Assembly: GCA_026396515.1 (NCBI GenBank)
Contig: JAPLWQ010000002.1
Coordinates: forward strand, 9,075-73,074
Length of the DNA: 64,000 nt
Reading direction: 5' to 3'
Origin: Candidatus Magasanikiibacteriota bacterium
Lineage (GTDB): Bacteria > Patescibacteriota > Patescibacteriia > Magasanikbacterales > GWA2-37-8
This document shows, one piece after another, positions 21,100 through 55,274 of the stretch (position 1 is its first letter; every line of letters begins with the position of its first letter). The translations under genes were made by a program, and so were the position numbers. The notes under the pieces are model-generated. The model was not told the DNA's origin. It did no database searches and worked only from the letters and a program-made list of their open reading frames with translations.

Positions 21100-21503
21100 A
21101 TTAGTTTTTTAACTTTGTCGATAATATTTTCTTTTAAACAGGTCGTTGATATATCGGGTGTTCTTTCGAGATATACAACCTCACAACACTTTTTCAACTC
21201 ATCAAATTTTCCCTCCCAATCGTTACCCATAACAAAGATGTCAATCTTTTTATTTTTTATATCCGCTACTTTCTGCTCCCAATTTTCTTCTGGGATGACT
21301 TCATCTACATACCTAATGGTCTCTAAAACGGCCTTTCTTTGCACATAAGGCAAGAAACAATCTTTATTTTTCATCCTGTTGAATTCGTCGGTTGATAAAC
21401 CCACAATCAAATAGTCACCAAGGTCTCTCGCTCTTTTGAGTAAGTTTATATGACCAACGTGCAATAGGTCATATGTACCATACGTAATCACAATTTTTTT
21501 CAT
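21096..21503 (-). CDS. tagD: glycerol-3-phosphate cytidylyltransferase
   Basis: 135 aa. Nucleotidyltransferase motif ITYGTYDLLHVGHINLLKRA and the short length typical of TagD/TarD. Confidence 0.8.
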   Translation of the reverse strand: MKKIVITYGTYDLLHVGHINLLKRARDLGDYLIVGLSTDEFNRMKNKDCFLPYVQRKAVLETIRYVDEVIPEENWEQKVADIKNKKIDIFVMGNDWEGKFDELKKCCEVVYLERTPDISTTCLKENIIDKVKKLI

Positions 21504-23040: not shown

Positions 23041-23052
23041 ACTTTATAAACT

Positions 23053-31580: not shown

Positions 31581-31883
31581 GACTCCACCCCAACCCTCCT
31601 CTTATCAAGAGGAGGGAGGCAACGCTTCCTTCTCCTTTGCATCGATTAAACCTCACCCCAACCCTCTCCTTATTAAGGAGAGGGAGGTGACGCTTCCCCT
31701 CTCTTACAAAGAGAGGGGTTAGGGGAGAGTCATCAACTCCACCCCAACCCTCCTCTTGTTAAGAGGAGGGAGGCGACGCTTCCCCTCTTTTACAAAGAGA
31801 GGGGTTAGGGGAGAGTTTGTTAAGAGGAGGGAGGTGACGCTTCCCCTCTCTTACAAAGAGAGGGGTTAGGGGAGAGTCAGATG
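31581..31883. repeat. tandem array (about 3.5 units of about 80 bp) of double-hairpin palindromic elements
   Basis: Unit is CTCCACCCCAACCCTCCTCTT-NNN-AAGAGGAGGGAGGYGACGCTTCCCCTCTCTTACAAAGAGAGGGGTTAGGGGAGAGT. Each unit has two perfect 10-11-bp inverted repeats. No unique spacers, so not a CRISPR array. Lies between convergent genes 29982..31571 and 31907..32608. Confidence 0.75.
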
Positions 31884-31906: not shown

Positions 31907-32608
31907 TCAAATAGCTCTGGCCAAAGTAATCGCCCAAACTGTTTTTGAGCCACCGATTTTCAGCACTTTGGCACACTCATTTAATGTCGCGCCGGTAGTA
32001 TAGACATCATCAACTAAAATAACGGAATTAGGCACTGCGTCGCTTTTTACAGCAAAAGCGCCGTCCACATTTATTTCCCTTTCTTCTTTTGTCAGTTTTG
32101 CCTGTTGAGCGGTGGCGCGCAGCCGTGACAGGATACTATCATTAACTTCATACTTTCTTTGCGGAAAGATTTTTTTTATTTCCTGATAAATTATATCCGC
32201 CAATATTTTGGCTTGGTTAAATCCCCTCTCTCTTTCACGGCGGGGGAAAAGCGGTACGGGCAAGATCACACCTTCTTCAGGAATAGGAATACCCGATAAA
32301 TACCGCCCGATCAGCATTTGCCAGACCGATTGAATGTCATGCGCGTATTTATATTTAAAATCGCGTATCAATTTCGCTGACGGCTCGGCCTCCGTATAAC
32401 TCATTAAAGCCGAGACGCCGTCTAAATTGAAAAATCCGCGGCAGCCAAGGCAAAGCTCACCGCTGTTTTGTTTTCCACAGCCCGGACATCTTAGCACCGG
32501 AGATATTTTTTGTTTTTCAAAACACTTTTCACACCACCAGACGCCTTCTTTTCCGCATTCGGCGCAATAAACCGGAAATAGAATATCTTTAACCAGCTTT
32601 ATTATCAT
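31907..32608 (-). CDS. comF: ComF family protein (phosphoribosyltransferase-domain competence protein)
   Basis: N-terminal 4-Cys zinc finger (CAECGK ... CEKC ... CPGCGK ... CLGC) and C-terminal PRTase motif VILVDDVYTTGATL. Start taken at MIIKLVKD (32606-32608), just after the upstream terminator hairpin. Confidence 0.7.
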   Translation of the reverse strand: MIIKLVKDILFPVYCAECGKEGVWWCEKCFEKQKISPVLRCPGCGKQNSGELCLGCRGFFNLDGVSALMSYTEAEPSAKLIRDFKYKYAHDIQSVWQMLIGRYLSGIPIPEEGVILPVPLFPRRERERGFNQAKILADIIYQEIKKIFPQRKYEVNDSILSRLRATAQQAKLTKEEREINVDGAFAVKSDAVPNSVILVDDVYTTGATLNECAKVLKIGGSKTVWAITLARAI

Positions 32609-32612
32609 ATTA

Positions 32613-32640
32613 CAAAGACGCCCTTGCGGGCGTCTTAAAA
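32613..32640 (-). terminator. terminator hairpin at the end of the T4SS-like operon
   Basis: AAGACGCCCTTGCGGGCGTCTT: perfect 9-bp stem, loop TTGC. Followed on the minus-strand RNA by UUUGUAAUAU. Sits between the stop at 32652 and the comF ATG. Confidence 0.5.
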
Positions 32641-32651
32641 AATCATTTATG

Positions 32652-33248
32652 CTATTTAACCCATTCAAATTTATCCACTAGCCAAATGCCTTTTGTTTCC
32701 ACCAGCCAAACCTTTGCCTTTTCATTCGTTTGCGTTGTGCTTGAACCCTTGGTAGTTATTCGCTGGGCAGACACTTCTACCATGGCTTTTCCGCTGGCGT
32801 ATTCAACGACATCAGACGCCACCGCATTGGTGGTTACACCGAGAAACACCGCCGGTTTGCCTGTGCCAATCTTTTTTTCAAGTTCAGACCAATAACTCAT
32901 TGTCACCAATGTCTCCACTTCGCGGATATTAGCAAAATCACTATCCGAAGAATATGTGCCATAGCGCTCGGTGAATATTTTTGCCATTTGCTTCGCCCCG
33001 TTTTTTAGCGCTTCTTCCGTAGTAAGCGGTTTCACCGGTATTCCAGTCGGTACGACAACCGGCGGCGGGGTGATCTGTACAGGAAAATTAGTTGAATCAA
33101 TCTGACCGGTCTGGTCTTCAGCCGGCGGCTGTTCAACCGGCGGCGCCGCTTTTTGGCGGACAAAAACAATAATACCGACGCTGATTCCCAGTATAATCAA
33201 AACAATCAAACTGATAAAAATAAACAGACGGGAGCGAAGTGTGGTCAT
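32652..33248 (-). CDS. bitopic membrane protein, possible VirB8-like T4SS component
   Basis: 198 aa. N-terminal TM, Pro-rich linker, about 110-aa globular C-terminal domain. The VirB8-like assignment rests on architecture and operon context only. Confidence 0.3.
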   Translation of the reverse strand: MTTLRSRLFIFISLIVLIILGISVGIIVFVRQKAAPPVEQPPAEDQTGQIDSTNFPVQITPPPVVVPTGIPVKPLTTEEALKNGAKQMAKIFTERYGTYSSDSDFANIREVETLVTMSYWSELEKKIGTGKPAVFLGVTTNAVASDVVEYASGKAMVEVSAQRITTKGSSTTQTNEKAKVWLVETKGIWLVDKFEWVK

Positions 33249-33289
33249 ATGTTTTCAAATATTTATGCTGCCGGTCCGCGCCGGCGCCA

Positions 33290-35158
33290 TTATTTATTTT
33301 CTGCAACAAATTCTTTTTTTGCTTTTTCAATGGCCAGAAGCTGTTCGGGGTTGGTAGTGACTATCTGATCTTCGGTATATGATGCCACCACTTTAATGGC
33401 GGCGTGTTTCCGGCCGGCAAAAAATATTCCTTCGCCTACTCCGGACTCAAGCAACAAATATTTTTCACTATCGGTCAATACAAATACTTTCTGAATCAGA
33501 TCAATAGACGCCGGCGACTGACGCAATAATAATTGCAGGGCCGAGTTGGTGACGATCGCCTGCCCATATTGCGATTTCAAAAAGTCGTTCACATCCTGAG
33601 TGATAGTGGTAACGCCGAGATAATATTTACGGCAGCGTTTCACCAGAGCATAAATGAAACGCGCCGAATCTTCGTGCATCATCAGCCACCAGGCCTCGTC
33701 GATCACCAATATTCTTTTCTTGCGCTCCGAGCGCACCACATTCCAAATATAGTTCACAATGGTATATATGGCAATCGGCCGAAGTTCATCTTCCAAATCC
33801 CGCACCGAATAAATGACCAGCTGATTTTTCATATCAACATTGGTCGGCGAGTTGAACAAGCCGCTGAAAGTGCCTTCAGTATATTTTTGCAATTTTAAGA
33901 CAAGCTCTTCCGACCCTTGCATTCCCTCCAATATCTCCACCAAATCCTGCATAATCGGCGGCTTAACCGTGGCCAAATCGGCATCGGGCGTAATATCCTT
34001 CTTGGCGTAGGTTTCAATCAATGCACGGTCAATAATAGCGTCTTGTTCAACGGTCAGACCGCCAAGCATGATGCGCAGGAGCCCTTTCACAGTAATAACC
34101 GCTCCGCGGATCACGTCTTCGGTGGATATTTCCATACCCATCGGCCGGGGCAGATCAAATGGATTAATTTTAGCTTCTGATGAAAGAGAAATGTTAACAT
34201 AAGTACCGCCGACAGCGTCGCTTAAATGCTTATATTCCATTTCCGGGTCGATAACAATCACATCCACGCCCATCATCATGGTACGCAGAATTTCCAGCTT
34301 AATGGCATAACTTTTCCCGGCGCCGGAAGTGGCGAACACCACCATATTGGCGTTTTGCAGGGAAAACCGTTCAAATAAAATCAAGCTGTTGTTGTGGCGG
34401 TTAATGCCGTAAAGTATGCCGTCATCAGATGTCAGCTCGGCGGATATAAAAGGAAACGACGCGGCAATCGGAGAGCTGTTCATGTTGAAGGCAACATACA
34501 ATTCATCATTACATAAAGGCAAAGTGGAATTATAGCCCTGCTCTGATTGATACAAAACCTTTCGGGTCATAATCAGCTTGCCGCCGAAAATATTTTCAAT
34601 ATCCTCGGTGGTCTGGTCCAATTCTTCTTTTTTTCGCGCATAAATTGTGGCGTAAAAACAGAATTGAAAAAAATGTTCGGTGCCCTGCGTTAAATTATCC
34701 CGCAATTGCTCAATATCGCGCAAAGCTGTTTCGCGGATCGGATCGCGCGGTGCGCCTTTTTCCGTATCGGCATTAATCTGCGCTTCCAAGGCGCCGACTT
34801 TATTTTTTAATTGTTTTAAAATGACGGCTGATTTTACCGGATAGAAAAACATGGCCAAATCCATGGTGACGGAAAGATTGATAACGGGCGAGGCCCAGCC
34901 GATGGAAATGTAGCGCGGATAGGCGGTGATAAAAAGCGTGCGGCAAAAAGCATCACCAAGCTGAACAAAACTTGACTCCACGCGAAAAGCGGAAGGCGCC
35001 ACCAAATCGCGGATGGACACCACGCCTTCACGATATATTTTTTCCTCTTCAAGCGTCACCAGCTCTTCAGATGCTTTTCTCTTAAGCTCACTGGTTTCGG
35101 TCTGCAGGCGGCTGGTGGCCTGTTTTTGTTCTTTAATCGCCGATGGTTTAAATGCCAT
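33290..35158 (-). CDS. virB4: VirB4/TrbE/CagE-family type IV secretion ATPase (C-terminal 622-aa part)
   Basis: Walker A FATSGAGKSYAI, Walker B RILVIDEAWWLM, and VirB4-type N-proximal block (LGDAFCRTLFITAYPRYISIGW). Confidence 0.75.
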   Translation of the reverse strand: MAFKPSAIKEQKQATSRLQTETSELKRKASEELVTLEEEKIYREGVVSIRDLVAPSAFRVESSFVQLGDAFCRTLFITAYPRYISIGWASPVINLSVTMDLAMFFYPVKSAVILKQLKNKVGALEAQINADTEKGAPRDPIRETALRDIEQLRDNLTQGTEHFFQFCFYATIYARKKEELDQTTEDIENIFGGKLIMTRKVLYQSEQGYNSTLPLCNDELYVAFNMNSSPIAASFPFISAELTSDDGILYGINRHNNSLILFERFSLQNANMVVFATSGAGKSYAIKLEILRTMMMGVDVIVIDPEMEYKHLSDAVGGTYVNISLSSEAKINPFDLPRPMGMEISTEDVIRGAVITVKGLLRIMLGGLTVEQDAIIDRALIETYAKKDITPDADLATVKPPIMQDLVEILEGMQGSEELVLKLQKYTEGTFSGLFNSPTNVDMKNQLVIYSVRDLEDELRPIAIYTIVNYIWNVVRSERKKRILVIDEAWWLMMHEDSARFIYALVKRCRKYYLGVTTITQDVNDFLKSQYGQAIVTNSALQLLLRQSPASIDLIQKVFVLTDSEKYLLLESGVGEGIFFAGRKHAAIKVVASYTEDQIVTTNPEQLLAIEKAKKEFVAENK

Positions 35159-35162
35159 ATTT

Positions 35163-35849
35163 TTAAGCGTTTTCCGCGTTTAATGTTTCAAGCGGAGCGA
35201 GCGGTTCTGACAAAGCGATATCCGGATTATAGGTGGTATAAAATAATTCAATCAGCGACTGCGTGTCCAGCCGCACCACTTCCAAACCCATACTGGTCAG
35301 GCCAGATTCAATCTGGCGCACGCGCATATCCAGATCATATTTTCTTTTCATAAACCTTTCTTCTTTCAGACGCACTGTGATTGCCGGATTGATAACTTCC
35401 GAAGCGCGCGACCAAAAACCGCGCTTTTTATTTGATAACGGGTCATACGGCACAATCACATAGAACAGTTTGCTCATAATCTTCCCCAAACTGACCAATT
35501 CGGAAACAAATGAGCGGTAGTCGGCAATCTGCATCCTTAATAATTCATTCGGTTGTTCGCGCTCTTTCCTCGCCAATTTTTCCAAATACGGTTTAACATT
35601 CAGCTGACGGGATTGAATAACAATCTGTAAAGGATGGTCTAAACCGTTTAAAAAAGATACATATGAAAAAACAATGGCTTGCTGTTCGTCCTCATTTTTA
35701 AGCGAAAAATTAATACTGGATACCATAAGCACAGACCGCAGGGTGCCGTCTTTCATCACAACGGTATCGTTCTTAATTTCGGCGATAGACAAATTTTTTT
35801 GCGTGGTTGGAATCGCCGCCCGTTTATTTGATGCTTTTTTATTTTTCAT
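35163..35849 (-). CDS. VirB4 N-terminal domain encoded as a separate 228-aa ORF (split or frameshifted virB4)
   Basis: IAEIKNDTVVMKDGTLRSVLMVSSINFSLKNEDEQQAIVFSYVSFLNGLDHPLQIVIQSRQ resembles the extreme N-terminal CagE/TrbE/VirB4 block. Its stop lies 4 nt from the ATG of 33290..35158, in a different frame, at an A5 run. Confidence 0.45.
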   Translation of the reverse strand: MKNKKASNKRAAIPTTQKNLSIAEIKNDTVVMKDGTLRSVLMVSSINFSLKNEDEQQAIVFSYVSFLNGLDHPLQIVIQSRQLNVKPYLEKLARKEREQPNELLRMQIADYRSFVSELVSLGKIMSKLFYVIVPYDPLSNKKRGFWSRASEVINPAITVRLKEERFMKRKYDLDMRVRQIESGLTSMGLEVVRLDTQSLIELFYTTYNPDIALSEPLAPLETLNAENA

Positions 35850-35869
35850 ACGTTCATTAAAACACTAAA

Positions 35870-36334
35870 CTAATCTTCTGCCTGATAATAACCGCCTGTA
35901 TTAACTGTTAAAGACAGATCGCGAATCCGGCTGTATGAAAGGCGCGGAATCGGTTTCGCCGCTTCCGGAATCGTTACCACGCCCTCGGCCTGAAGGCGCT
36001 TTATTTCGCCGGTGTTATAAATTTTATTCCAAATGCGCAAAGCCGGCCGGCGCAGCGTCTGTACTATGTTTAATAAAAAATAGTGGAATGCCTGCCCGTT
36101 GATTTTTACAAAGGCGATGATGAGCGAACCGCCTCCGATTACGGCGGTTAAAAAAATGAATAAAGCAAAATCGGCCAATTTGAAGGTGACAAATAATACC
36201 AGGCCGGCCACCAGCAAAATAACAAACTGCCGGGCGGTAATCGGACCGAATATTTTATCCTCCACATCAATAAATTGCGGGACAACAAATTGCGTTTGCA
36301 TAGCTATATTACAACAATTCTTTTTCCATCTCAA
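35870..36334 (-). CDS. small two-TM membrane protein, VirB3/PrgI-like candidate
   Basis: 154 aa with two hydrophobic helices, positioned directly upstream of virB4 as VirB3 homologues usually are. Confidence 0.35.
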   Translation of the reverse strand: MRWKKNCCNIAMQTQFVVPQFIDVEDKIFGPITARQFVILLVAGLVLFVTFKLADFALFIFLTAVIGGGSLIIAFVKINGQAFHYFLLNIVQTLRRPALRIWNKIYNTGEIKRLQAEGVVTIPEAAKPIPRLSYSRIRDLSLTVNTGGYYQAED

Positions 36335-37505
36335 TTATCGCCTGAATCTCGGGTATCTGTATTCTGGCGGTATCGGCCGATAATATTTCTGATAATTTTT
36401 TCTTTGTATTCAGCGCTTCGGTAACGGCTCCGGAATAATCAATAAACAGCGGGCTTCGGCGCCAGGCGGCTAAGCCGTCGAGATACCAGACATATGATTC
36501 TTCCCGCAAATTGAGAAATTTTTGTTTGAGACGAGACGCGGCTTCGGCCGGATTCGATGATAGACGGCGAAAATCGGTTAAAGACATGAACTCTATTTCA
36601 TCAATCGGGCCCAGATTTGACGGTCTTGCCGGCGTGATATCGCGGACAATCGGTCGGACCGGCGGAGCTGAAGTTTCCCTATCCTTACTAAGGAGAGGGC
36701 TGGGGTGAGGTAAACCTGTCCGCATTGTCTGTGGCGCTCTGACAAATGTATTTACCGGGGAAGATGTTGAAGGCAGGACATCTTCACTCTCTTTCATTAA
36801 TGCTGTCGGCATGCCCATTGGTTTAACCAACGGCTTGCCCACTGTTGCCGCCGGCGGAATTTCTTCTTCCAATAAAGAAGTAGCGTCATTTTTTCCAAAA
36901 CGGGCGGTAGGCGCCGGAGCCGCCGGTTTTGCCGGCATCGGAGTTTTACGATCTTCAATTATTTTCAGAACGGGAGGTACTGGTTTGGGCATCGACGGCT
37001 TAATGATTACTGCCGGTTTAATTTCAGGTTTTGACTGAACAATTTCCGCTGCCAGGGCTTTAATTCCCCCCGGATTCAAAGCAATTTTTTTGGCCGCGGC
37101 CAACTTTGGCGGTCGCGCTATTGGTTGAATTTTTGGCGGTAATACTGGCTTTGCCGGCACATTTTCTGTTTCAATGATTTCTGACGCAAGCAATTTTATG
37201 GCAGCCAAATTCGGCACGGACTTTTTTAGAACCGGTCTTGACGGCTGAACCGGCGGAGCTGATACCTCCCTCTCCTTACTAAGGAGAGGGTTGGGGTGAG
37301 GTAAGCCAGTCCGCATCGTCTGCGGAGCAGGCGCCGGTGTAACCGGGGTAATAGCCGGCTTAAGAGCGGGCGCAGGCTTATTTTTGCGCGCCTTAAAATC
37401 GGCCAAAGAAATTTTTTCAATGGTTCCGTCCGGTTTTTTAACAGTAATCATGGTGTTATCCGCCATATCAAACGCTCCATTTAAATTTATTATCCGCTTC
37501 GTCAA
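36309..37505 (-). CDS. proline-rich repeat protein of the T4SS-like operon (contains two in-frame palindromic elements)
   Basis: 398 aa, extended P/A/K-rich sequence. An internal ~30-aa duplication (QTMRTGLPHPNPLLSKEREVSAPPVQP and QTMRTGLPHPSPLLSKDRETSAPPVRP) is encoded by palindromic element copies at about 36678-36711 and 37268-37301. The true start may be MADNTMITV at about 37466, which would remove the overlap with the upstream gene. Confidence 0.45.
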   Translation of the reverse strand: MTKRIINLNGAFDMADNTMITVKKPDGTIEKISLADFKARKNKPAPALKPAITPVTPAPAPQTMRTGLPHPNPLLSKEREVSAPPVQPSRPVLKKSVPNLAAIKLLASEIIETENVPAKPVLPPKIQPIARPPKLAAAKKIALNPGGIKALAAEIVQSKPEIKPAVIIKPSMPKPVPPVLKIIEDRKTPMPAKPAAPAPTARFGKNDATSLLEEEIPPAATVGKPLVKPMGMPTALMKESEDVLPSTSSPVNTFVRAPQTMRTGLPHPSPLLSKDRETSAPPVRPIVRDITPARPSNLGPIDEIEFMSLTDFRRLSSNPAEAASRLKQKFLNLREESYVWYLDGLAAWRRSPLFIDYSGAVTEALNTKKKLSEILSADTARIQIPEIQAIIEMEKELL

Positions 37506-38583
37506 AATACATCAGTTCGGCAATTTTCTGATCATTATATTTCATTGCCGCGCTCTGCAGAGCGGTAAGCACACTGTCCAAGTCAACATACTCGCCTTGA
37601 GCATTTTTCGGAAACACGGCTTCAATTTTTTTCTTTATTTCAGCGTAAGACGGTTTAGCCGGAGCCGGCGGTTTTGGTACGGCAATAGTTTGTTCAATTT
37701 TTTTTGGCGCCTCTAATTTTGGCGGCACCGGCGCAGTTTGTTTTGTAATAACCGGTGCATTCTCCCGGGGCTTCGCATTGGTTTGCATTGCGACAGAAGA
37801 AGACCTTGTCTCAATTGGCATTTTGGGCTTTTCCACCGGAGTGGAATTGCGGACGCCTGTGACTTTTGTCGTCACGGTATCGCCACCCGGGGAATCCGGA
37901 ACAAAAGTGGACGGGTTGGTATAAACAAACACCAAGTCGGGCATCTCTTCAGCCGGTGTGTTCACAAAAAATCGCACTAATTCAACAAATTTCATCACCG
38001 CCTCATCAATTTCAACGAAAGTATATTGTTTCTGATAAATATCTTCATTTAGACCCTTGGGAAAAAACAATTTTTGCATCCGTTCATAAAATTGGGCAAG
38101 GAGCAGCGTCTCTCCTCTGCGGCTGTCAAGAAGAGCTATTTCATCAATCACATTTCTAATCGTGACATCCTGTCCGCCTAATTGTCCTATTACCCACTCG
38201 GACTTCGTGAATGAATCCTTTGCTTTGGAAAAAAATCTTTCAATTTCTTCAGGCAAAGTCATTCTCGTTTGCATATACCACATCAGCCGGTCAAACACAT
38301 CAAACCCAAGCCGGATGGCCTCCGGGGTTTGCTGCTCAATGGCTTTTTGCACGACTGCCTCTCCGGTCGTCCCAAGATACTTCCACGTTCCATACACATA
38401 CAAGCGCCAATAAGTTTTCAGGTATGGCTTAATCTCCTCGTAGCTTTTTCCATCAAAAAAATCGAATAACTCCACGCGGATAATATCCATGTTGCCGGAA
38501 TTAAAACACTGGGTCTCAAAGAAATCCTTTTCCAATTCGGAAAAGTCAATACCGGCTGATAATTTTGGATGATATGACATCAT
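37468..38583 (-). CDS. hypothetical cytoplasmic protein of the T4SS-like operon
   Basis: 371 aa, TGA stop. N-terminal globular domain and a Pro-rich segment (KPPAPAKP). No recognisable motif. Confidence 0.4.
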   Translation of the reverse strand: MMSYHPKLSAGIDFSELEKDFFETQCFNSGNMDIIRVELFDFFDGKSYEEIKPYLKTYWRLYVYGTWKYLGTTGEAVVQKAIEQQTPEAIRLGFDVFDRLMWYMQTRMTLPEEIERFFSKAKDSFTKSEWVIGQLGGQDVTIRNVIDEIALLDSRRGETLLLAQFYERMQKLFFPKGLNEDIYQKQYTFVEIDEAVMKFVELVRFFVNTPAEEMPDLVFVYTNPSTFVPDSPGGDTVTTKVTGVRNSTPVEKPKMPIETRSSSVAMQTNAKPRENAPVITKQTAPVPPKLEAPKKIEQTIAVPKPPAPAKPSYAEIKKKIEAVFPKNAQGEYVDLDSVLTALQSAAMKYNDQKIAELMYFDEADNKFKWSV

Positions 38584-38585
38584 AA

Positions 38586-49400: not shown

Positions 49401-51812
49401 TGATGCGGGAATAATATATGACAGTGGGTTTGCATTTGAATAATTGCTCGCCACTTCCTGATAGGCGGCATAGCCCACGCATTTGGCGTCGCACTGGTCG
49501 TTCCAGGTTACTTGACCGCCGGCCACCACTGCCGGCGTGAATTTGCCCGGTATTATTTCTTGCGTGAGAGCAGAGGTATATAAATTGCAGTTTTCTTCTT
49601 CAGGCAGACAGACCTGCGCATAATCATTGCATTTTCCCGCGTCTGCCGGGCGCAGTAAATTTAAGTCCGCGAGATTTTTCGGCCAACTGACGCCGTCAAT
49701 TAAACGCGCAAATGTCTGAATATATTTATTTGGTAAAGTGGTGGCGTCGGCATCATAGCAAAAAAGATAATTCGGCGCTTTTTTAAGATAGATTAATGTT
49801 TCAGAATCAGATGCCACTTTGAAAGCGCTGCAACCGTCATCGGTTGTCTTACAAGTTGTGGCTTTTTTGTTAAACGAAATGCTGGTGTTGGTGAAACTAT
49901 TTGACGAGGTGCTGATCACGGGCAAATACCAATCAGTGGTTGTGGGGGTAAAATAGTGCCTCGCGGTTATATAGTGGGTGCAACCATCATTTTCGGCATT
50001 GCATTGTTCAGTATCGAGCGTGCGGGTTAAATACCCTATTGTGTCGCCCGCTGAATTGGTAAACGCCCGGCAAGTGTTATATTGCGCGTCGCAATAATCG
50101 GCCTTGAATTTCCAAATCGGCTTCTCTCTTAAACAATACCCCCAGCTTGAGCAAGAACCATCTTTATTAAAACCAACGCAATGCTGAATGTCAGCGCAGG
50201 TTTGTAAACGCACGCCATCAGCGGAGATGGCACTATAGACAAACGATTTGCACCGCATCTTTGGAAGTTTGATCACCCAGTGCGGGTTGATAAGATGATA
50301 ATAAAGAGAACCCTCAGTGTAGTAGTTATCAACAACCTCTTTCAGAGTTACTGGGTTTTCTTGCGGCGAGCTATAGGCGGCAATTTCAAAACCAAGCGGC
50401 AAGACGCGCGCTAATCGCAAATAGCGGATATTGCGATGACAGTACGCCGATTGCGAACAGTCAAATTTTTGATTATTGGCAGCGTCTGATTCGGGAATCA
50501 ATTTCCAATCACCGTGCAAAAACCCGCGCTCCATCGCCTGTTTGATAGTGAACGGTTCGCCGGTGTTGGCTTGCTGGAGAATCTGCATGAATGACTGGTC
50601 AACAATGCAGGCCTCAGGCGACAAATTGTCTTCCGAGCATTCAGCCATGTTCGGAGAAATATCATAATTATCCAAAGTTGTAATTTTCGGTTTTAGCAGT
50701 TCGCTGAACATTTCCTGAGCCGCGCGGCGGTTGCCGGTGCCGGCGCTGCCGGATGAATAGTAACTCGTTGCCATGCTTTCGGCAGAATTATCATCTTCGC
50801 ATTGATCCCAACCAACGCCGGAAATGCTTAAACCCGGGTTACACACCTTCGCGCCACCCGGCAGCATACCTTTGGTAATAAAGTTATTAATGACCGTACC
50901 AAGCAAAGTATTTACAAAAGTGCTGACTGTGTTTAGAGCCAGGCTGGCGCCTCCTTTTTCCAAAGCTGCAGCCGTCATTGTCAATTGACTCGCCTTTTCT
51001 TCTCTTGTTTTATTTGCTGCCGATTGTGCGGTAAATTCTTCACGCATTACAGTGGCCGGAGCGATATTCTTGCGTGAAATAATTTCAGTCATAGCAAAAA
51101 TGCCGCTGCCTTCTTCACGGTCAAGCTGGGCACCGGCTGTTGTTTCGGCGGCCATAGTATCCATTTTTTCTTTTCCGGAAAACCAAACGCCAAAATCACT
51201 GTCTTCTACCTGCACACCCATACCAAGACGGCTGGTTAACCCTTCCACTGAAGCATATTTGCTCCGAATATTTTCAACATTATATGCGCTCTTCAGTTGC
51301 TGCCAAGTACAACGTGGTGTGGGCGGGCCGTAATTAAAATGGAAGCCAAGCTTTAACATCAAATCAAGTCGCAGGTCGGGCAAATTACACAAATCTAGGC
51401 CGAGATCCTCGCTTAGAGTGGCAAGCGCTTCACCAAGCGCGTCGCCGGCTGTTTGCGCCAGGTAATTGCCAAAACTCTCTTGGCTGGCAAACGGGCCTTG
51501 ACCAAAATCGCCGGCAGCCAAATACACGGCCATGTCATAAGCGATTTTATTTGTAAAATAGTTCAAGCCGTTCATTATGGCAGACATTACCATCAAGAGG
51601 CCTTCGGTTTTGATTTTTTCTAACAGCGTTTTTTCCTTTTCACCGGCTGTTTGTTGAAGAGTCCAAGGTTTAAAATAACCAGCCCATCCCACATAATCAT
51701 GATATTGCGCTTTAGCAGGTGTTGGATAAAGCAATATTAAGCCAAAAATAAAAGTGAAGACAATGCTTGCAAGCACTGCTCCCAGTCCGAATTTTTTAGA
51801 TTTGGAAATCAT
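43461..51812 (-). CDS. giant cysteine-rich secreted/surface protein
   Basis: 2,783 aa (about 8.35 kb). N-terminal signal/anchor (LGAVLASIVFTFIFGLILLYPTPAKA). Hundreds of Cys in repeated CxxC/C...C patterns. A segment resembling a carbohydrate-binding beta-sandwich (ISNWSGSAGSVSVATS ... ILSFWAKGN). Starts 7 nt after the upstream gene; TAG stop. Confidence 0.6.
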   Translation of the reverse strand: MISKSKKFGLGAVLASIVFTFIFGLILLYPTPAKAQYHDYVGWAGYFKPWTLQQTAGEKEKTLLEKIKTEGLLMVMSAIMNGLNYFTNKIAYDMAVYLAAGDFGQGPFASQESFGNYLAQTAGDALGEALATLSEDLGLDLCNLPDLRLDLMLKLGFHFNYGPPTPRCTWQQLKSAYNVENIRSKYASVEGLTSRLGMGVQVEDSDFGVWFSGKEKMDTMAAETTAGAQLDREEGSGIFAMTEIISRKNIAPATVMREEFTAQSAANKTREEKASQLTMTAAALEKGGASLALNTVSTFVNTLLGTVINNFITKGMLPGGAKVCNPGLSISGVGWDQCEDDNSAESMATSYYSSGSAGTGNRRAAQEMFSELLKPKITTLDNYDISPNMAECSEDNLSPEACIVDQSFMQILQQANTGEPFTIKQAMERGFLHGDWKLIPESDAANNQKFDCSQSAYCHRNIRYLRLARVLPLGFEIAAYSSPQENPVTLKEVVDNYYTEGSLYYHLINPHWVIKLPKMRCKSFVYSAISADGVRLQTCADIQHCVGFNKDGSCSSWGYCLREKPIWKFKADYCDAQYNTCRAFTNSAGDTIGYLTRTLDTEQCNAENDGCTHYITARHYFTPTTTDWYLPVISTSSNSFTNTSISFNKKATTCKTTDDGCSAFKVASDSETLIYLKKAPNYLFCYDADATTLPNKYIQTFARLIDGVSWPKNLADLNLLRPADAGKCNDYAQVCLPEEENCNLYTSALTQEIIPGKFTPAVVAGGQVTWNDQCDAKCVGYAAYQEVASNYSNANPLSYIIPASGKSCGAADAGCSAFTNLTTDQGGLEQTEYFSYLRLCMLPDANKQKNFYVYESSETSGYQLKTYTFEKDASGGPKQIFHDTNELALYESEASPCNSISYLAGTANPDCHQFNDDSTNTYYAMLSKTVIVSDQCTPYRLNSPELVSGFSPTDLRCPYDFEPTSVGKRAGDAIELKENSCYYMGFTGNTNGAGDAQSCTKEAESCRAYKGNAGNNVRSLASDSFESTISNWSGSAGSVSVATSTESTQLGGHSLKISANVSSGGKVAIRTGFNIQQDKSYILSFWAKGNLSLDDIQIGEESGEASAYFSGPVTVSDVWRYYSFGPVEYNGPANTGKLRFLISLTGGETKLMYIDNVNLKEVTDYIYLVKNSLSVDPICDSNLSDNLPGEALSCMAYVDPAKNTYYLTNFSYLCREEAVGCTALLDTQNTPEQPLASAYNVWLKGESGTVAEITIEGTKFSCQVPVGKDGCYTNILGINDLENLYDLQGSDITLTNSTIIIPPDTPTTSPIYLVASKDVTCKAENMGCQVLGKGKFSPSGNTFTTAFGSATHYEVFEDTAVKNDPALYDTSLCRAEEIGCKSWKSGESVYYFKDPVQNGKLICKYVEPSAISYTTPAFNFPNPFGGPDIVIPEMEHNFSFGGWVWKDVGICTGGGKLCMSDSDCGEGKTCLFKNQVPCASDYSSATDGYGLWSNGNVGKYKGFVGECPVEQNGCTEFVDHSSATDEKKCALSGKKCENNSDCSEESEEDICIVNSANAYYLLDNTNLSEQMSLCNGQVSAAEGCVLIDNTNQPTKMYNTALTNQESLDKKEALVNPVASSTANDANIIIKVIHDRVCGEWAYCDLKQEFEDEETGEASSRCFHLGVCNKAGAVDAVAGKVVKDCAETVPLWTTKGQILSAALYRSVFNAWNSLDFSGYSTYGFYQVPDLTARKVGDTFRMVYVNTQYSFYGGGGSGTECIKPTATDNHNGDSCGTTAYSGHCYNGECLRSWAGYYPEYSSSLGCRAYSEMMSPFPYYVFKDSNADMLEFKDGFEDVNVCKTNNGNQTQLCEAECGYRKIKTDGAEVYEPISRPIEGNYICSTGLKAGLYCSGPESTGCGEGNSCSTIKSFQILNGWMGYCMERDETYRINGTNTANCMTWWPLESPPGVPNSWDQDPKAGYQINEGKKDRFMCLNNLPPTDLHHFGTVFTPKSHNGAAYDATLSMPKNNSYYMFLPDTIYDYEHNVINPEGDDDWVALYGLDDNTWVTGCYDNNGGTDWEVNQPTSGFTSSADLNLFKFDMPGGKKSHGMFCPLNASTLAYDTDVKFYCDYTLIDDATGRTICGTTEGGVLYHSGFSQFQDTRPAYVGKNLFSSGHPTYLNRREIERIDVHFDENSYMPKSKGWVSFISDMTDADEGERYFVSEENWAMNGGDSSYHSVELESTCEGKQYKAWEWKSWAGDSTPQWANSNKNKLITNGVCTDQFREEQLEVEDEDQGISVRVVWDDQYNLRGIWMNFENQVNTDAHTIGFFFVIHFTNGACKKYAQVSDTGADENNGKMYFKPFTNRLASGASLTLGTDGTGNDLSSRQRVRTPTLNESNYGLMEADPIAEDLNAVFINPFTVADQYHTVFSQAGSDEYSYAASKYGVFEAGVPLTVVDNMMDSICDTDCQSKISYTQSTIEGSATKPIASMLRTMFAKVYEFDKLADGSASDGGFDGYAKNAGDGKSGSYDAANPTRAAEISLNIYPPRVAAPSADSWVLDKISVDGKIGGNIYLMSGSQAHIKFYAWAHGNQMPIRRIVVDKGDSFGDTQIDSLISDSLGNRKFACSEKICDDTDEGSQFPCNSDGDCDPANTYYTCGDTSSDIKKFGNTDDTGCKAKPWDFVTDFNCPFGSMGIVESSSTGYVDIGFESSIPISSLGIDWAYIRQNFYGAEYVCVAHPRVYVLDNWGWCAGSCDYSSNTHVKGPGCYSEAGSGSTNQCDKTLSEPWVNYDGYVIVVPLPQ

Positions 51813-51818
51813 AAGCTG

Positions 51819-52649
51819 TTATTTCTTTTTTCCGGACATTATTTCATTGATAAATTGAGCCGTAGCCGTAGTATTGGCCGTATTTGTGGCCGTAGTGATG
51901 GAGCTCATTATCGTACTGGAAGAAAATATTTCCGTTGCCATTTTTATTAAATCATCATCGGATATTTTATCAAGCACTGATTGTTCAACTCCTGCCTCGA
52001 GAAGTATTAGGCGCACCTGTTCAGGGCTGGAAATAAGCTCTTCAAGAGAGGTGACGGCAGTCATGTCGCCGGCCGGCGTACTGGAAGAAAAAATTTCAGC
52101 CGCCATCTGAACCAATTCTTCATCTGATATTTTATCAATCACGGATTGCTCAACGCCTGCGTTGAGCAGTACGGTGCGCATCTGTTCCGGACTGGAAACA
52201 AGCTCTTCAATCGTGGTCGGCATTTTGTAATCGAACAAAGTTGGCAGATCGGGTTTGCCGGCAACGGTTGAAGCACTCTCTCCTACGTTGCCAATACAAT
52301 TTTTTCCTTCAGCGCAATTCGGATTTTTCCCCTGGTCAATTTCTTGTTTATCTGTCAACCCATCGGAATCGGAATCTGCCAAATACGGGCTGGTGGTAAA
52401 AATATACAATTCATCATAGTCACTTAAGCCATCCATATCGGTATCGCGGTAGCGCAGTGCTTCTGGAGTGTTCACTTCCTGGCCGATCATCGGCGGAATG
52501 GATGTGTTCAGAGCGAACGGGCTGTATAGAGTATTGCGCATTTGGATCAAGCCGAGCGTAACTGCGAGCAAAACAAAAGCTGACAGCAAAACCAAACCGA
52601 TCTTCTGTTCTTTGGACAGTCGTAACTTTTCATCAGCCATATATACCAC
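51819..52649 (-). CDS. membrane-anchored protein with thrombospondin-type-3-like Ca-binding repeats and a duplicated C-terminal module
   Basis: 276 aa. N-terminal TM. DTDMDGLSDYDELY ... DSDSDGLTDKQEIDQG (DxDxDGxxDxxE repeats). Two copies of an ~45-aa module. Putative promoter TTGGCT-16-TGATATAAT about 40-70 nt upstream. Confidence 0.5.
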   Translation of the reverse strand: MVYMADEKLRLSKEQKIGLVLLSAFVLLAVTLGLIQMRNTLYSPFALNTSIPPMIGQEVNTPEALRYRDTDMDGLSDYDELYIFTTSPYLADSDSDGLTDKQEIDQGKNPNCAEGKNCIGNVGESASTVAGKPDLPTLFDYKMPTTIEELVSSPEQMRTVLLNAGVEQSVIDKISDEELVQMAAEIFSSSTPAGDMTAVTSLEELISSPEQVRLILLEAGVEQSVLDKISDDDLIKMATEIFSSSTIMSSITTATNTANTTATAQFINEIMSGKKK

Positions 52650-52756
52650 TGCGGTTTGAACCGCCGGGTGTTAAACCCAATTATATACAATATTATTATA
52701 TCACAATAAAGCCGTTAGCCAAATACTTTGATAGTGGATAAGATTCGGGATAAAGC

Positions 52757-54301
52757 TCATTTACCATTCCGGGTCGAAGAGTACAGCCGCAGCTCGGCAA
52801 GATAGACATTACCGTCGGTATTTTGAGGAAAATAATATGTGGCGAGCCGGCCGTACGTTGAATCGAGATATTTAAACAAATTTCCGCGCGGGTCTTCCAC
52901 AGCTTCACCGCGGTATCCGGCAACCCAAAAACGGCCGGAACCCTCTATAAGGCTATCTATAAGTATTACATTTTTTTCTGTAATGATCGGGTAATCACTG
53001 TATCTCCAGCGGATTTGCCAATCATCCGTAAGTGTATTTTTATACGGAAAAAAGAATTTTACTTCCGGGCCGCTTTTAAGATACTGCGTCCAAAGCACAT
53101 GACTATAGTGGTCGGCAACGACTATGTCCCCCGGACGAGACTCATTTAATATTATTTGAGCAAAACTTGGAGCGAAATATTTAAAAGCCCGGCTATTGTC
53201 CATTCGGCTATTATCCGTAATGTATGAAGGGATGATGAATAAGGAAAATATGACTGCCGCGCCTCCCACAACGCCTAACCACGACTTGCGTTTTAAGTTC
53301 GCTAAGACTACAGCGAACATCAATATCATCGGAATGGTAAAAATGATATAGTAACGCTCGGTGTAAATAAACTTCAGCACCGCAAGCATAACCCAGCCGG
53401 AAATAACCAATATCGCGAGTATTCTGTTTTTCGTTTCACCATAATTACGCCAGAAATAAATCATTAGGGCGATAATAAATATGGATAACATTGCCGGTAC
53501 CGCGTTAATACCGACAACCCCAAAAACAATTGTATATAGATACTGAAATAAAGCGAAAATGTCCCCATGGGAAAAAAATCGGCCGTAAAAAGATTCCGAA
53601 CCAACGCCGACGAAATCGCCCCAGCGCTCAAAAACCATTAATGCGGGAATATAGCCGACGGCAACCGCTGCCGCGCAGACAATAATTTTTTTGATTTCAG
53701 TTTTTTTGTAATAGTAAAGCAAAATATAGGCAGGCACAATCAGCGCGGCCGACGAATAGTGCGTATACAAAAGCAATAAGGTAAATATCGCCAGCCCGAT
53801 AAAATCGCTTTTCTGTCCTCTTTTAATCGCACGCAATAAAAATAGAATAAAAAATATAGCGATTAAAACCAACACGGAGTAGGCGCGGATTTCAGTAGCG
53901 TACTGAATGTTTAATGGAGACAAAGACATGAGCAAGGCGGCAAACAAGCCGACTTGTTCATCAAATATTTCTTTGCCCAAAAAATATATGGCGGCAATCG
54001 CTGCCAAACTAAAAATAAAGGGCAATATCGCAATAAGCGCAACGCTCCCCGTGCCGACAATTAGAAGCCAAAAATGCAACAGAACAAAAAACAAACACGG
54101 TGTTGTATCTAACCCGGATAAAGCGACCGTACGCGTTAAATTTTGAGATGAAAAATAAATGGAAACCGTTTCATCGTACCAGGCTATTTTAGGACCAAAA
54201 ACACCCGCTTCTGGAATAATTGTTAAAAATTTCGGCAGACGAACAATAAACCCGACGGCAATAATAAGAAAAAGCAGTATTAATGCCCGTTTTTTATTCA
54301 T
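52757..54301 (-). CDS. GT-C family glycosyltransferase (ArnT/PMT, GT39/GT83-like)
   Basis: 514 aa. About 11 TM helices, then a C-terminal soluble domain. N-terminal loop pattern typical of dolichyl/undecaprenyl-phosphate sugar transferases. Confidence 0.5.
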   Translation of the reverse strand: MNKKRALILLFLIIAVGFIVRLPKFLTIIPEAGVFGPKIAWYDETVSIYFSSQNLTRTVALSGLDTTPCLFFVLLHFWLLIVGTGSVALIAILPFIFSLAAIAAIYFLGKEIFDEQVGLFAALLMSLSPLNIQYATEIRAYSVLVLIAIFFILFLLRAIKRGQKSDFIGLAIFTLLLLYTHYSSAALIVPAYILLYYYKKTEIKKIIVCAAAVAVGYIPALMVFERWGDFVGVGSESFYGRFFSHGDIFALFQYLYTIVFGVVGINAVPAMLSIFIIALMIYFWRNYGETKNRILAILVISGWVMLAVLKFIYTERYYIIFTIPMILMFAVVLANLKRKSWLGVVGGAAVIFSLFIIPSYITDNSRMDNSRAFKYFAPSFAQIILNESRPGDIVVADHYSHVLWTQYLKSGPEVKFFFPYKNTLTDDWQIRWRYSDYPIITEKNVILIDSLIEGSGRFWVAGYRGEAVEDPRGNLFKYLDSTYGRLATYYFPQNTDGNVYLAELRLYSSTRNGK

Positions 54302-54434: not shown

Positions 54435-55274
54435 CTACGGGGCATATTTATTTTTTGAGAAGAAATCGGCCAGATAACTCCATTGACTCACCGAAAATTC
54501 TTGCGCCCGGACGGTTTTTTCGAGACCGAGAGAGGCAAAAGTTTGCTCCAACGCTCCCCTATTTTGTTTACCGATGGCCGGCAGAAGATTTTTTACTAAC
54601 AATTTGCGACGGTTGGCGAAACCGGCTTTAACAAGGCGGAAAAATCCATCGGACTTTATGGGCTTCATAACTTTATGAACTTTGAGAACTATGATAGCTG
54701 AATCAACCTTCGGCATTGGCCAAAAATTATCACGCGGTACGAAATCAATGATTTCGGCGTCCGCATAATATTGAACGGCAACGGATAACAAAGACATCTC
54801 CCCTGGCTTGGCGCAAATTCTTTCCGCCACTTCTTTTTGCACCATCAGCGCCATTTTTTCCGGCGGATTATTCACCTCAAGAAAAGCGCGGATTACCGCC
54901 GATGTAATTTGATATGGCAGGTTGGCAATAACTTTGTATTTTCCCTTTGGCAAATCATTTGCCTGTCGCAAAACATTTCCCCAAATAGTATTTACATTTT
55001 CCGGCTTTCTATCCTGCCAATACGGCACTAGTTTTTTTTCAATTTCAAAGGCAACCACCTGTTTTGCCCGTTCAGCCAAGGCAAAAGTGAGCACGCCAAA
55101 ACCGGGACCGACTTCCACTACGGTGTCGGTTTTTTTCAAATCACCGGCTTCAATAATCTTTTCAATTATTTCCTGATTCACTAAAAAATTCTGGCCGTAT
55201 TTTTTGGACGGTTGTAGACCATAATTCTTACAGAGTGAATAGAGATAATCCGGGTTAAATAATTTTTGATTCAT
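54435..55274 (-). CDS. rsmA: 16S rRNA (adenine1518/1519-N6)-dimethyltransferase
   Basis: 279 aa. KKYGQNFL, SAM motif VVEVGPGFGVLT, IANLPYQITS. Confidence 0.85.
   Translation of the reverse strand: MNQKLFNPDYLYSLCKNYGLQPSKKYGQNFLVNQEIIEKIIEAGDLKKTDTVVEVGPGFGVLTFALAERAKQVVAFEIEKKLVPYWQDRKPENVNTIWGNVLRQANDLPKGKYKVIANLPYQITSAVIRAFLEVNNPPEKMALMVQKEVAERICAKPGEMSLLSVAVQYYADAEIIDFVPRDNFWPMPKVDSAIIVLKVHKVMKPIKSDGFFRLVKAGFANRRKLLVKNLLPAIGKQNRGALEQTFASLGLEKTVRAQEFSVSQWSYLADFFSKNKYAP

Follow-up and report, generated by a model that had tools for sequence, protein, structure and literature searches.

A chromosomal, non-conjugative type IV secretion operon with a terminal comF gene and a neighbouring giant surface protein module in a Candidatus Magasanikbacteria genome

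Described systems and the composition of the operon

Type IV secretion systems (T4SSs) of Patescibacteria were surveyed by Quinonero-Coronel (2025, PMC12102498) and found to be related to MPF-FATA systems, with TrsD (the commonest component), PrgI and VirB6 near virB4, a location near ksgA, rare relaxases, and many T4CP homologues far from virB4. VirB8 homologues were almost confined to class ABY1, for which comF beside the T4SS was also recorded. For the Saccharibacteria, the cluster of Southlakia epibionticum (SEML1_0006-0019) was studied by Wang (2023, PMC10633639); T4SS genes were essential to epibiotic growth, and comEC, comF, and dprA were dispensable.

The window, that is, the whole stretch of DNA that was analysed, is 64 kb long and comes from a Candidatus Magasanikbacteria MAG. 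Eight closely spaced genes run down the minus strand of this genome (Magasanikbacteria, which we take to be GTDB class ABY1) from 41555 to 31907 in the order extended VirB6-like, 371-aa, 398-aa, PrgI/VirB3, TrsD-like, VirB4, VirB8-like, and comF, with -17 to +43 nt between cistrons. This operon is a chromosomal, non-conjugative T4SS of the type already published for ultra-small Patescibacteria (CPR) (PMC10633639, PMC12102498), here with a terminal comF. Like the published loci, it is chromosomal and near ksgA, has TrsD and PrgI before an MPF-FATA-type VirB4 with a VirB6 homologue nearby, contains the ABY1-specific VirB8 homologue and comF, and has no relaxase or T4CP nearby. It differs in the 600-aa hydrophilic extension of VirB6 and in the two soluble orphans inside the operon, and, from the Saccharibacteria cluster, in that neither a VirB2-like pilin (array) nor a VirB1-like hydrolase was found within the window. 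All ORFs of the first-pass annotation were recovered at their coordinates, and its call of a T4SS-like operon is backed by HMM matches, by fold searches with two AlphaFold models, and by synteny across 80 VirB4-anchored loci, which were drawn from Magasanik-/Uhrbacteria genomes at species level. Gene order and strand were kept across these loci, with VirB4 in 80, TrsD (as a gene of its own) in 76, PrgI in 74, comF in 73, the C-terminal domain of the 398-aa protein in 70, the VirB8-like gene in 66, and the VirB6-like gene in 51.

A promoter-like extended -10 element (TGGTATAAT; 41585..41593, minus strand) was read directly in the sequence 30 nt ahead of the VirB6-like ATG and was missed by the consensus promoter scan because its -35 hexamer is weak. 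The first gene (38586..41555, minus strand, as for all genes of the operon) encodes a polytopic protein of 989 aa that appears to be an extended VirB6-like channel protein, judged by sub-threshold HMM matches and a medium-confidence model (pLDDT 71). Its N-terminal membrane domain of ~360 aa is conserved, and the C-terminal ~600 aa are variable and hydrophilic/coiled-coil. The two genes that follow, listed earlier as Pro-rich hypotheticals, are real and conserved and belong to no family. The soluble 371-aa protein (37468..38583) has no TM segment and no match in Pfam, NCBIfam, or PDB, and it is a lineage-specific operon member, found at the same position in 33/80 loci. The soluble 398-aa protein (36309..37505; 14% Pro), also without a family or PDB match in these databases, likely starts at the ATG at 37466; its conservation is confined to the C-terminal ~100 aa, and two in-frame copies of a REP-like element lie within its linker.

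HMM searches placed PrgI and VirB4 above their cutoffs. The product of 35870..36334, called VirB3-like beforehand, matches Pfam PrgI at 37.5 bits (cutoff 27) and has two hydrophobic segments; the likely start of this two-TM protein is the ATG at 36301, giving about 143 aa. The TrsD-like protein of 228 aa (35163..35849) matches NCBIfam TrsD/TraD (6.9e-8) and the N-termini of VirB4 models, and by this sequence likeness it would be the equivalent of a free-standing VirB4 N-terminal domain. It ends 4 nt from virB4, and the earlier description of VirB4 in two pieces was correct, yet the split is natural, as seen in the related loci. The VirB4 ATPase (33290..35158) is of the CD1110/MPF-FATA type (NCBIfam NF045971, 356 bits, cutoff 325; Pfam P-loop_TraG, 1.4e-29), with intact Walker A (SGAGKS) and Walker B (ILVIDEAW) motifs in the translation. 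The bitopic 198-aa protein (32652..33248) has no match by sequence. Its AF2 model (pLDDT 79) shows a TM helix (4-32), a disordered linker (34-61), and an NTF2-like domain (77-197), and the best PDB matches in Foldseek were PrgL (7aed, E 3.9e-5), TcpC, OrfG, CagV, DotI, and TraH, in agreement with the proposed VirB8-like identity.

The last gene, comF (31907..32608), is of the ComFC type, with zinc-ribbon Cys pairs and a PRTase domain (TIGR00201, 1.4e-28, below its cutoff; Pfam Pribosyltran and DZR_2). It was assigned as the terminal cistron of the unit because it stands directly 3' of the VirB8-like gene in 73/80 loci, the median spacing being 28 nt and overlaps frequent. The first-pass annotation had instead ended the unit in a clean terminator and placed comF beyond it. 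Between the two genes is a GC-rich hairpin (32615..32636, minus strand; 9 bp, GCAA loop, dG -16.7 kcal/mol, z -3.9) that ends 6 nt ahead of the comF ATG (32608); a canonical terminator was rejected at this site, as there is no U-tract and the terminator scan did not call it. The hairpin is possibly an attenuator or an RNA-stability element. Analogous hairpins are restricted to the closest clade, and it could uncouple comF expression in this lineage.

The giant Cys-rich protein and its neighbours

Upstream of the operon lies a set of surface protein genes that is new here, being unmentioned in PMC12102498 and PMC10633639. The giant gene (43461..51812, minus strand) encodes a secreted protein of 2,783 aa with 100 Cys, one N-terminal signal/TM segment, and a CBM_4_9 module at residues 1022-1124, and it gave no match in PDB or NCBIfam. 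Its conserved C-terminal Cys-rich domain (43464..44135, minus strand), called DNWGWC after its motif (KFFAFAD.NQMPIR.I.VDWGD ... P.VQV.DNWGWCNG.C ... GCY ... VIV.P), had no PDB match; at least 360 metagenome matches were obtained, and every one of 325 cluster representatives carries it at the very C-terminal end of a protein 2,600-4,400 aa long. A TM-anchored protein with two TSP3 repeats of the calcium-binding type (51819..52649, minus strand; Pfam TSP3_bac, 24.9 bits, cutoff 25; one TM segment) is encoded 7 nt 5' of the giant gene and is co-transcribed with it. In 38/80 giant-anchored loci a TSP3-like gene is 5' of the giant gene, and 23 of the 38 also have ksgA. Convergent with the giant gene is the gene of an acidic lipoprotein (42666..43229, plus strand; 17.6% Asp, lipobox FIPAC, (TD)n tract), and both end at a bidirectional terminator-like hairpin of 15 bp (43381..43413) called by the terminator scan. 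In most related loci the giant gene is followed, on the other strand, by a gene for an acidic lipoprotein of 140-220 aa. Together, ksgA, the TSP3 membrane protein, the DNWGWC protein, and the opposite-strand lipoprotein form a conserved module.

These proteins, and the GT-C glycosyltransferase further upstream (52757..54301, minus strand; Pfam PMT_2, 44.3 bits), were as described in the first-pass annotation. Its inclusion of the GT-C in the neighbourhood of the apparatus did not hold, since a homologue was found at the same position in only 1/160 loci.

Origin, function, and alternatives

VirB4 is 69-96% identical among the 80 Magasanik-/Uhrbacteria genomes and 28-34% identical to the best plasmid VirB4s, which are CD1110-family proteins of Firmicutes/Actinobacteria (Bacillales, Clostridium, and actinobacterial records). 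For two of the loci (L030 and L034) the identities were 78% for VirB4, 71-73% for RF1, 53-57% for KsgA, and 59% for Sua5, and VirB4 is thus as conserved as housekeeping proteins. The region is very probably a vertically inherited chromosomal T4SS of the Patescibacteria clade, derived from monoderm MPF-FATA conjugation machinery. With the Trs and Tra systems of pGO1/pSK41 and pIP501 (MPF-FATA; Staphylococcus and Enterococcus plasmids) it shares TrsD followed by a VirB4-type ATPase as a split pair, a small VirB3-like TM protein, and VirB8-like NTF2 proteins, pIP501 TraH being among the fold matches; those systems are encoded on plasmids, serve conjugation, and include a relaxase, a T4CP, and a VirB1 hydrolase, none of which was found in the window. 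With the Prg/Pcf system of pCF10 (PrgH, PrgI, PrgJ, PrgL, PrgB) it shares a Pfam PrgI member, the VirB8 domain of PrgL as the best structural match, and an upstream-encoded polytopic VirB6-class protein, whereas the present locus has no homologue of the PrgB adhesin, PcfC, PcfG, or PrgK, and its genes are chromosomal and resemble a housekeeping set.

A single promoter would drive the eight close-packed cistrons from the VirB6-like gene through comF. Judged by the homologous Gram-positive T4SSs, the polytopic VirB6-like protein would form the membrane channel, and PrgI would tether to it the VirB4 ATPase, which would receive its N-terminal domain in trans from TrsD and power assembly and translocation. 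The bitopic VirB8-like protein would scaffold passage through the wall, and the 371-aa and 398-aa proteins may be lineage-specific cytoplasmic accessories or substrates. The system most likely moves macromolecules at host-cell contact, as is thought for the essential Saccharibacteria system. The organism is an ultra-small CPR bacterium, in agreement with the first-pass annotation; the host-contact part of the proposed apparatus is drawn from experiments in another lineage, the Saccharibacteria (PMC10633639).

A reading of the operon as an integrated conjugative element, intact or in decay, would explain the homology of VirB4, PrgI, TrsD, and VirB8 to Gram-positive conjugation proteins, the tRNA-Ser gene 2 kb from the operon end, and the REP-like repeats on both sides, and it is very improbable. 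No VirD4/T4CP, relaxase, or VirB11 was found in the 64 kb by a Pfam scan of 48 ORFs of ≥150 aa (ORF 24192-25235 lay outside the scan, and several of the 48 had no family match), in agreement with the earlier reading that this is not a conjugation module, and no integrase was found in the window. All operon genes are intact, GC is 43-47% within and beside the operon, the repeats are palindromic elements specific to this genome, copies of which are also found within a gene, and the order and the chromosomal housekeeping flanks (ksgA, sua5, prfA, ftsW, gyrB, ABC-F, tRNA-Ser) recur in dozens of species. With no coupling protein or relaxase in the window, the system probably does not self-mobilise, although either may be encoded at a distant site in the genome. 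The same absences, VirB11 included, are shared with the VirB4-based Helicobacter pylori ComB T4SS and archaeal Ced, which are linked to ComF/ComEC-type uptake functions, and a possible, tentative alternative is an importer that would draw DNA in across the envelope, from the surroundings or an attached host, and deliver it single-stranded to ComF, to be recombined or salvaged for nucleotides. The conserved position of comF, a weak match of VirB4 to the CedB model (3.3e-13), the frequency of recG and radA in ABY1 T4SS loci (PMC12102498), and the natural competence of CPR bacteria, which lack nucleotide synthesis (PMC10633639), are consistent with such putative import. However, the CedB match is P-loop similarity only, to which the homology with ComB and Ced is limited; ComB works in a diderm and includes VirB2, B7, B9, and B10, the CedA proteins of Ced are unrelated, the window has no comEC, dprA, or recognisable importer-specific component, and competence of Southlakia needs comEC. 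Because its com genes are dispensable while its T4SS is essential (PMC10633639), the link to comF may be a secondary role or mere co-regulation.

A vertically inherited secretion system could also include the giant, its TSP3 partner, and the acidic lipoprotein as physical parts or substrates that serve as its adhesin or host-contact element, in the manner of the PrgB-like proteins of monoderm conjugation systems, a reading that is plausible but unproven and on balance rather doubtful. The adjacency proposed earlier is real: in 19 of the loci anchored on VirB4, a giant with the same C-terminal domain precedes the VirB6-like gene on its strand, a VirB6-like gene is 3' of the giant in 16/47 giant-anchored metagenome loci, the arrangement persists across 25-45% protein identity, and in three loci (L029, L030, L034) a TSP3-like gene is fused directly to the T4SS operon. 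The giant is secreted, with a carbohydrate-binding module and an invariant C-terminal domain, and no PrgB-type adhesins were found in Patescibacteria in the 2025 survey (PMC12102498). However, in 31/47 giant-anchored loci a VirB6-like gene was not seen within reach, and in L001, which is the closest relative and whose VirB4 is 96% identical, the giant is missing from that position and different genes stand upstream. Inherited synteny alone could account for the adjacency, as ksgA adjoins both modules. Of the proposed neighbourhood, the order of the T4SS genes and comF is kept, and the giant, TSP3, and lipoprotein genes are a separate surface module. It lies next to the T4SS often but not obligatorily, in roughly one third to one half of the relatives. 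The two sets of genes are transcribed as distinct units, and the bidirectional terminator, the lipoprotein gene that converges on the giant gene, and a short ORF for a coiled-coil protein (41832..42044, minus strand; 70 aa, with 32 further in-frame codons past a TGA) stand between them. This ORF has its own promoter-like site (42099-42070, 11/12 matches in the promoter scan) and a terminator-like hairpin; one homologue is uninterrupted (L093), and another adjoins a giant gene (L120).

Components and limits of the T4SS operon

All ORFs listed in the first-pass annotation are present in the window as described. The T4SS operon (41555-31907, minus strand) contains eight cistrons separated by a few nucleotides, encoding, in order, a VirB6-like protein (989 aa), a 371-aa protein, a 398-aa protein, PrgI/VirB3, a TrsD-like protein (228 aa), VirB4, a VirB8-like protein (198 aa), and ComF. 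An extended -10 element (TGGTATAAT, 41593-41585, minus strand) lies 30 nt 5' of the first ATG. VirB4 (33290-35158) matched NCBIfam NF045971 (CD1110 family, Gram-positive conjugation ATPases) with 356 bits against a cutoff of 325 and Pfam P-loop_TraG at 1.4e-29, and its Walker A and B motifs, read from the sequence, are intact. The 228-aa ORF just 5' of virB4 matched NCBIfam TrsD/TraD at 6.9e-8, below the family cutoff, and also aligned with the N-terminal 100-130 positions of the NCBIfam VirB4 models. VirB4 had been reported as occurring in two pieces, which is correct; because the split is kept in 76 of the 80 VirB4-anchored related loci, with the TrsD homologue adjoining virB4, and because of the TrsD match, it was read as a TrsD-plus-VirB4 arrangement, and a frameshift or pseudogene was ruled out. 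The proposed VirB3-like protein, a 154-aa ORF close to VirB4, was recovered by Pfam PrgI (37.5 bits against a cutoff of 27) and has two hydrophobic TM segments.

The VirB8-like protein gave no sequence-level match in Pfam, NCBIfam, or the PDB sequences and was modeled using AlphaFold2 from an alignment of 15 homologues (pLDDT 79). In the model, a TM helix at the N-terminus is joined by a disordered, Pro-rich linker to an NTF2-like domain of alpha+beta type. Foldseek against the PDB ranked the VirB8 domain of PrgL (pCF10) first (E 3.9e-5), followed by TcpC, OrfG, CagV, DotI, an IcmL-like protein, and TraH of pIP501; E values from PrgL to TraH run from 4e-5 to 1e-3. Other proteins of the NTF2 fold, CaMKII hub domains for example, were interspersed among these matches. 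The set thus includes a bitopic NTF2-fold protein of the VirB8 type, by predicted structure and fold search, as well as a VirB6-class polytopic channel protein. PDB sequence and profile searches with the full length and the N-terminus of the VirB6-like protein returned nothing meaningful, and a precomputed PF19590 label on four of its homologues was left unused as it was not reproduced with the current Pfam copy. With PrgI above its threshold and the VirB8-like fold matched, the earlier VirB6-, VirB3-, and VirB8-like assignments withstood HMM and structural comparison.

The 371-aa and 398-aa proteins, previously called Pro-rich hypotheticals, are genuine lineage-specific operon members. Both are without TM segments and had no Pfam, NCBIfam, or PDB relatives; a Pfam scan of every member of the two alignments gave no consistent family, and PDB sequence and profile searches with the 371-aa protein and the C-terminal domain of the 398-aa protein found nothing meaningful. 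The 398-aa protein (14% Pro) is present in 70 of the 80 loci with conservation in its C-terminal ~100 residues only, while the 371-aa protein is conserved along its whole length in 33 loci.

The unit had been described as ending in a clean terminator with comF beyond it, a boundary that was not upheld. A GC hairpin (9 bp, GCAA loop, dG -16.7 kcal/mol, z -3.9) does lie between the VirB8-like stop and the comF ATG (32608), but it has no U-tract, was not called in the terminator scan, and ends 6 nt before the comF ATG, which leaves no room for a promoter. In 73 of the 80 loci, the gene directly 3' of the VirB8-like gene is comF. Among the 61 loci in which the spacing was compared, the VirB8-like stop and the aligned comF start are a median of 28 nt apart; about 20 of these loci have ≤12 nt, eight of them with overlapping genes, and terminator-like hairpins occur in the closest clade only. 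An operon-ending terminator was therefore ruled out; at most, the hairpin acts as an attenuator or a stabilising element, and comF, given its conserved adjacency, the short gaps, and the missing U-tract, is the terminal cistron of the T4SS operon. Its operon membership is now backed by quantitative evidence.

Chromosomal context and relation to known systems

Conjugation genes were searched using Pfam in 48 of the 49 window ORFs of ≥150 aa (all except 24192-25235). As the first-pass annotation had stated for relaxase, VirD4, and VirB11, no relaxase (MOB), VirB11, or integrase was found among these 48 ORFs. No coupling protein (VirD4/TcpA) was found either, there being no P-loop_TraG or T4SS-DNA_transf protein in the window besides VirB4, which itself gave negligible matches to T4CP models (0.029-0.11). 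The two conserved orphan soluble proteins, of 371 and 398 aa, are candidates for the missing substrate-recruitment function.

The operon occupies the same context in 80 species-level genomes, with gene order fixed across dozens of species, and the VirB4 relatives in these genomes are 69-96% identical; most carry a Patescibacteria label, and those sensibly labelled belong to Candidatus Magasanikbacteria, Uhrbacteria, or "Patescibacteria group." The VirB8-like protein is 100% identical to one from a Candidatus Magasanikbacteria MAG (NTW66_00775). In two related loci (L030 and L034), identity to the window is 78% for VirB4, 71-73% for RF1 (57015-58088), 53-57% for KsgA, and 59% for Sua5. VirB4 is as conserved as translation factors and evolves as slowly as release factor 1, which indicates core-gene status; in these two loci its identity exceeds that of RF1, KsgA, and Sua5, a sign of very strong purifying selection on the T4SS motor. 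The best plasmid-borne VirB4s, of the CD1110 family in Firmicutes and Actinobacteria (monoderm), are only 28-34% identical. At 45-47%, the GC content of the operon matches that of its flanks, which carry ordinary chromosomal genes: an ABC-F ATPase and tRNA-Ser on the 3' side, and ksgA (54435-55274), a sua5-DUF4015 fusion, prfA, an Orn/DAP decarboxylase, ftsW, and gyrB on the 5' side. An integrative conjugative element (ICE) bounded by tRNA-Ser and flanking repeats was ruled out by the conserved context and by the nature of the repeats, which are genome-specific REP-like palindromes that are also intragenic. That the operon is an ICE remnant is highly improbable; the lack of conjugation genes among the 48 scanned ORFs and the conservation of context agree with the earlier view that this is not an obvious conjugation module.

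The titles of many TPA MAG records carrying the operon (among them L003, L007-L011, and L015-L018) read "uncultured Gammaproteobacteria bacterium," and that of L069 reads "Candidatus Methylomirabilis sp.," evidently through taxonomic mislabelling in the public records.

Systems of this type have been described in two studies (PMC12102498; PMC10633639), so the T4SS is not new, and the window adds one more example. A Patescibacteria-specific VirB4 clade related to MPF-FATA was defined by Quinonero-Coronel et al. (2025, PMC12102498), with TrsD (the commonest T4SS component of Patescibacteria), PrgI, and VirB6 encoded near virB4, VirB8 homologues almost confined to class ABY1, very few genomes with a relaxase, ksgA as one of the most frequent T4SS neighbours, and comF, recG, and radA in the ABY1 T4SS locus. 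The window shares with this clade the TrsD homologue beside virB4, the chromosomal site near ksgA, and, as in ABY1, comF in the locus, but differs in the absence of VirB2-like pilin genes, which are frequent, not universal, near virB4 in Patescibacteria (PMC12102498): no small intergenic ORF with two TM segments was found anywhere in the window. The Saccharibacteria cluster has a VirB2-like pilin array and a VirB1-like hydrolase, whereas neither was found in the window. In Southlakia epibionticum, T4SS genes were essential by Tn-seq for growth on the host, while comEC, comF, and dprA were non-essential (Wang et al. 2023, PMC10633639); these findings were restated in a 2025 review (PMC12857230). 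The window provides a well-resolved ABY1 example of a system that the only CPR organism tested needs for epibiotic growth, and predicted models confirm on structural grounds that an ABY1 operon encodes proteins of the VirB8 and VirB6 classes.

The giant surface protein module and possible functions

The giant protein (43461-51812, minus strand) has 2,783 aa, 100 Cys, and one N-terminal signal/TM segment. A CBM_4_9 carbohydrate-binding module is its only recognised domain; it gave no NCBIfam match, PDB sequence and profile searches with the whole protein and its C-terminal domain returned nothing meaningful, and BLAST of the protein against itself found no internal repeats. A short motif, C-x(5-8)-GC-x-x-aromatic, recurs along it. 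The C-terminal ~220 residues make up a Cys-rich domain of strong conservation, with the motifs KFFAFAD.NQMPIR.I.VDWGD ... P.VQV.DNWGWCNG.C ... GCY ... VIV.P, here termed the DNWGWC domain. While a word-indexed homology search with this C-terminus found two fragments only, an exhaustive search of 1.84 billion representatives found the domain in 325 proteins, at the extreme C-terminus in all of them, with full-length members of 2,600-4,400 aa. A metagenome scan gave at least 360 matches to giant relatives, from which 80 loci were fetched. A TSP3-like gene (in the window, 51819-52649, minus strand) precedes the giant gene in 38 of these 80, with ksgA before it in 23 of the 38, and a gene for a small acidic lipoprotein (in the window, 42666-43229, plus strand) usually lies 3' of the giant gene in opposite orientation. 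These results delineate a family of giant Cys-rich surface proteins that is widespread, is diagnosed by its C-terminal domain, and has fixed partners. A short ORF of ~120 aa in another locus (L093, 405-767), beside a homologue of the window's small coiled-coil gene, has the last part of the DNWGWC domain only and may be a stand-alone small protein or a fragment.

By homology to Gram-positive T4SSs, the operon products would assemble into a secretion apparatus with the VirB6-like protein as the channel, PrgI as the tether, TrsD and VirB4 as the motor, and the VirB8-like protein as the wall scaffold. The favoured reading is that the ABY1 T4SS is a host-contact translocon whose work includes nucleic-acid handling, the latter because comF is co-transcribed with the operon and ComF is an ssDNA-binding link between import and recombination (PMC10633639). 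The genetic linkage to comF would also suit a pure DNA-import machine of the ComB/Ced type, which we consider doubtful but with an appreciable chance of being correct.

The proposal of a surface module beside the T4SS held for part of its members. The giant C-terminus lies just 5' of VirB6 in 19 VirB4-anchored loci, and an HMM search found a VirB6-like gene 3' of the giant gene on the same strand in 16 of the 47 loci with at least 3 kb of downstream sequence. Synteny between the giant family and the T4SS extends to between a third and a half of relatives. The GT-C gene (52757-54301, minus strand) has a homologue at the same place in one other locus only, and its membership in the apparatus was ruled out. 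The adjacency of giant and T4SS genes is far above chance and is equally compatible with inherited synteny beside ksgA. It leads to one specific hypothesis about the adhesin that surveys did not find, namely that the giant module fills this role for the T4SS, which is rather unlikely. Three observations speak against a tight coupling. Between the two units in the window lie a bidirectional terminator, the lipoprotein gene in convergent orientation, REP-like elements, and a small coiled-coil gene that has promoter-like and terminator-like sites of its own; in the closest relative (L001), the genes 5' of VirB6 are unrelated ones; and the GT-C gene recurs in that single other locus only. In three loci (L029, L030, and L034), the order is ksgA, TSP3-like, 398-aa homologue, PrgI, TrsD, VirB4, VirB8-like, and comF, and the giant, VirB6, and 371-aa genes are missing at the T4SS site. 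The host-contact interpretation of the T4SS and surface genes is partly supported. Its fullest form, in which a dedicated surface module of the TM-anchored, calcium-binding TSP3 protein, the giant, and the lipoprotein would act for the ABY1 T4SS as the missing adhesin or host-docking element, and the comF-terminated operon would import host nucleic acid through this contact, is quite unlikely as a whole. If true, it would offer a concrete architecture, open to testing, by which CPR cells other than Saccharibacteria attach to hosts and feed on them.

REP-like elements and neighbouring genes

REP/MITE-like palindromic elements, consisting of a core (CACCCCAACCCTCYYCTTNNTAAGRRGAGGGAGG) and a second hairpin (CCCCTCTCTTTGTAAAAGAGGGG), are clustered on both sides of the T4SS operon (31583-31877 and 42494-42593). 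Two copies (37242-37328 and 36651-36737) lie in frame within the Pro-rich linker of the 398-aa gene, where they encode GLPHP(N/S)PLLSK(E/D)RE, and one of them is an insertion relative to the homologues in L001 and L002. The element is nearly absent from the 160 related loci (one match) and resembles the Rickettsia palindromic elements, which insert into coding genes.

The small coiled-coil ORF (41736-42044, minus strand) has 70 aa followed by an in-frame TGA and 32 more codons, which are still homologous to an uninterrupted ORF in L093; the TGA could reflect a nonsense mutation or a sequencing error, or it could be read through. Another homologue lies near a giant gene in L120. Convergent to comF is a gene (29982-31571, plus strand) for a 529-aa polytopic membrane protein with ~10 hydrophobic segments, which had no Pfam or NCBIfam match. 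The gene keeps this place in 11 related loci, and its product may be a GT-C-like enzyme that went unrecognised.

In the left half of the window are genes for cell-envelope polysaccharides and teichoic acid, together with those for an ECF sigma factor and sensors. Within this half, 8000-24000 has 30-39% GC against about 45% and contains envelope glycopolymer genes, including those for a 958-aa AftD-like GT-C, a CDP-glycerol glycerophosphotransferase, several methyltransferases, and GT2 and GT4 enzymes; this stretch is possibly a surface-polysaccharide island that was acquired horizontally or evolves fast. A flippase gene (25136-26476) belongs to the same set of glycopolymer genes. On the 5' side of the operon, the 576-aa fusion protein (55283-57013, minus strand) joins Sua5/YrdC (tRNA t6A synthesis) to DUF4015, a putative glycosyl hydrolase and an unusual fusion partner for Sua5/YrdC.
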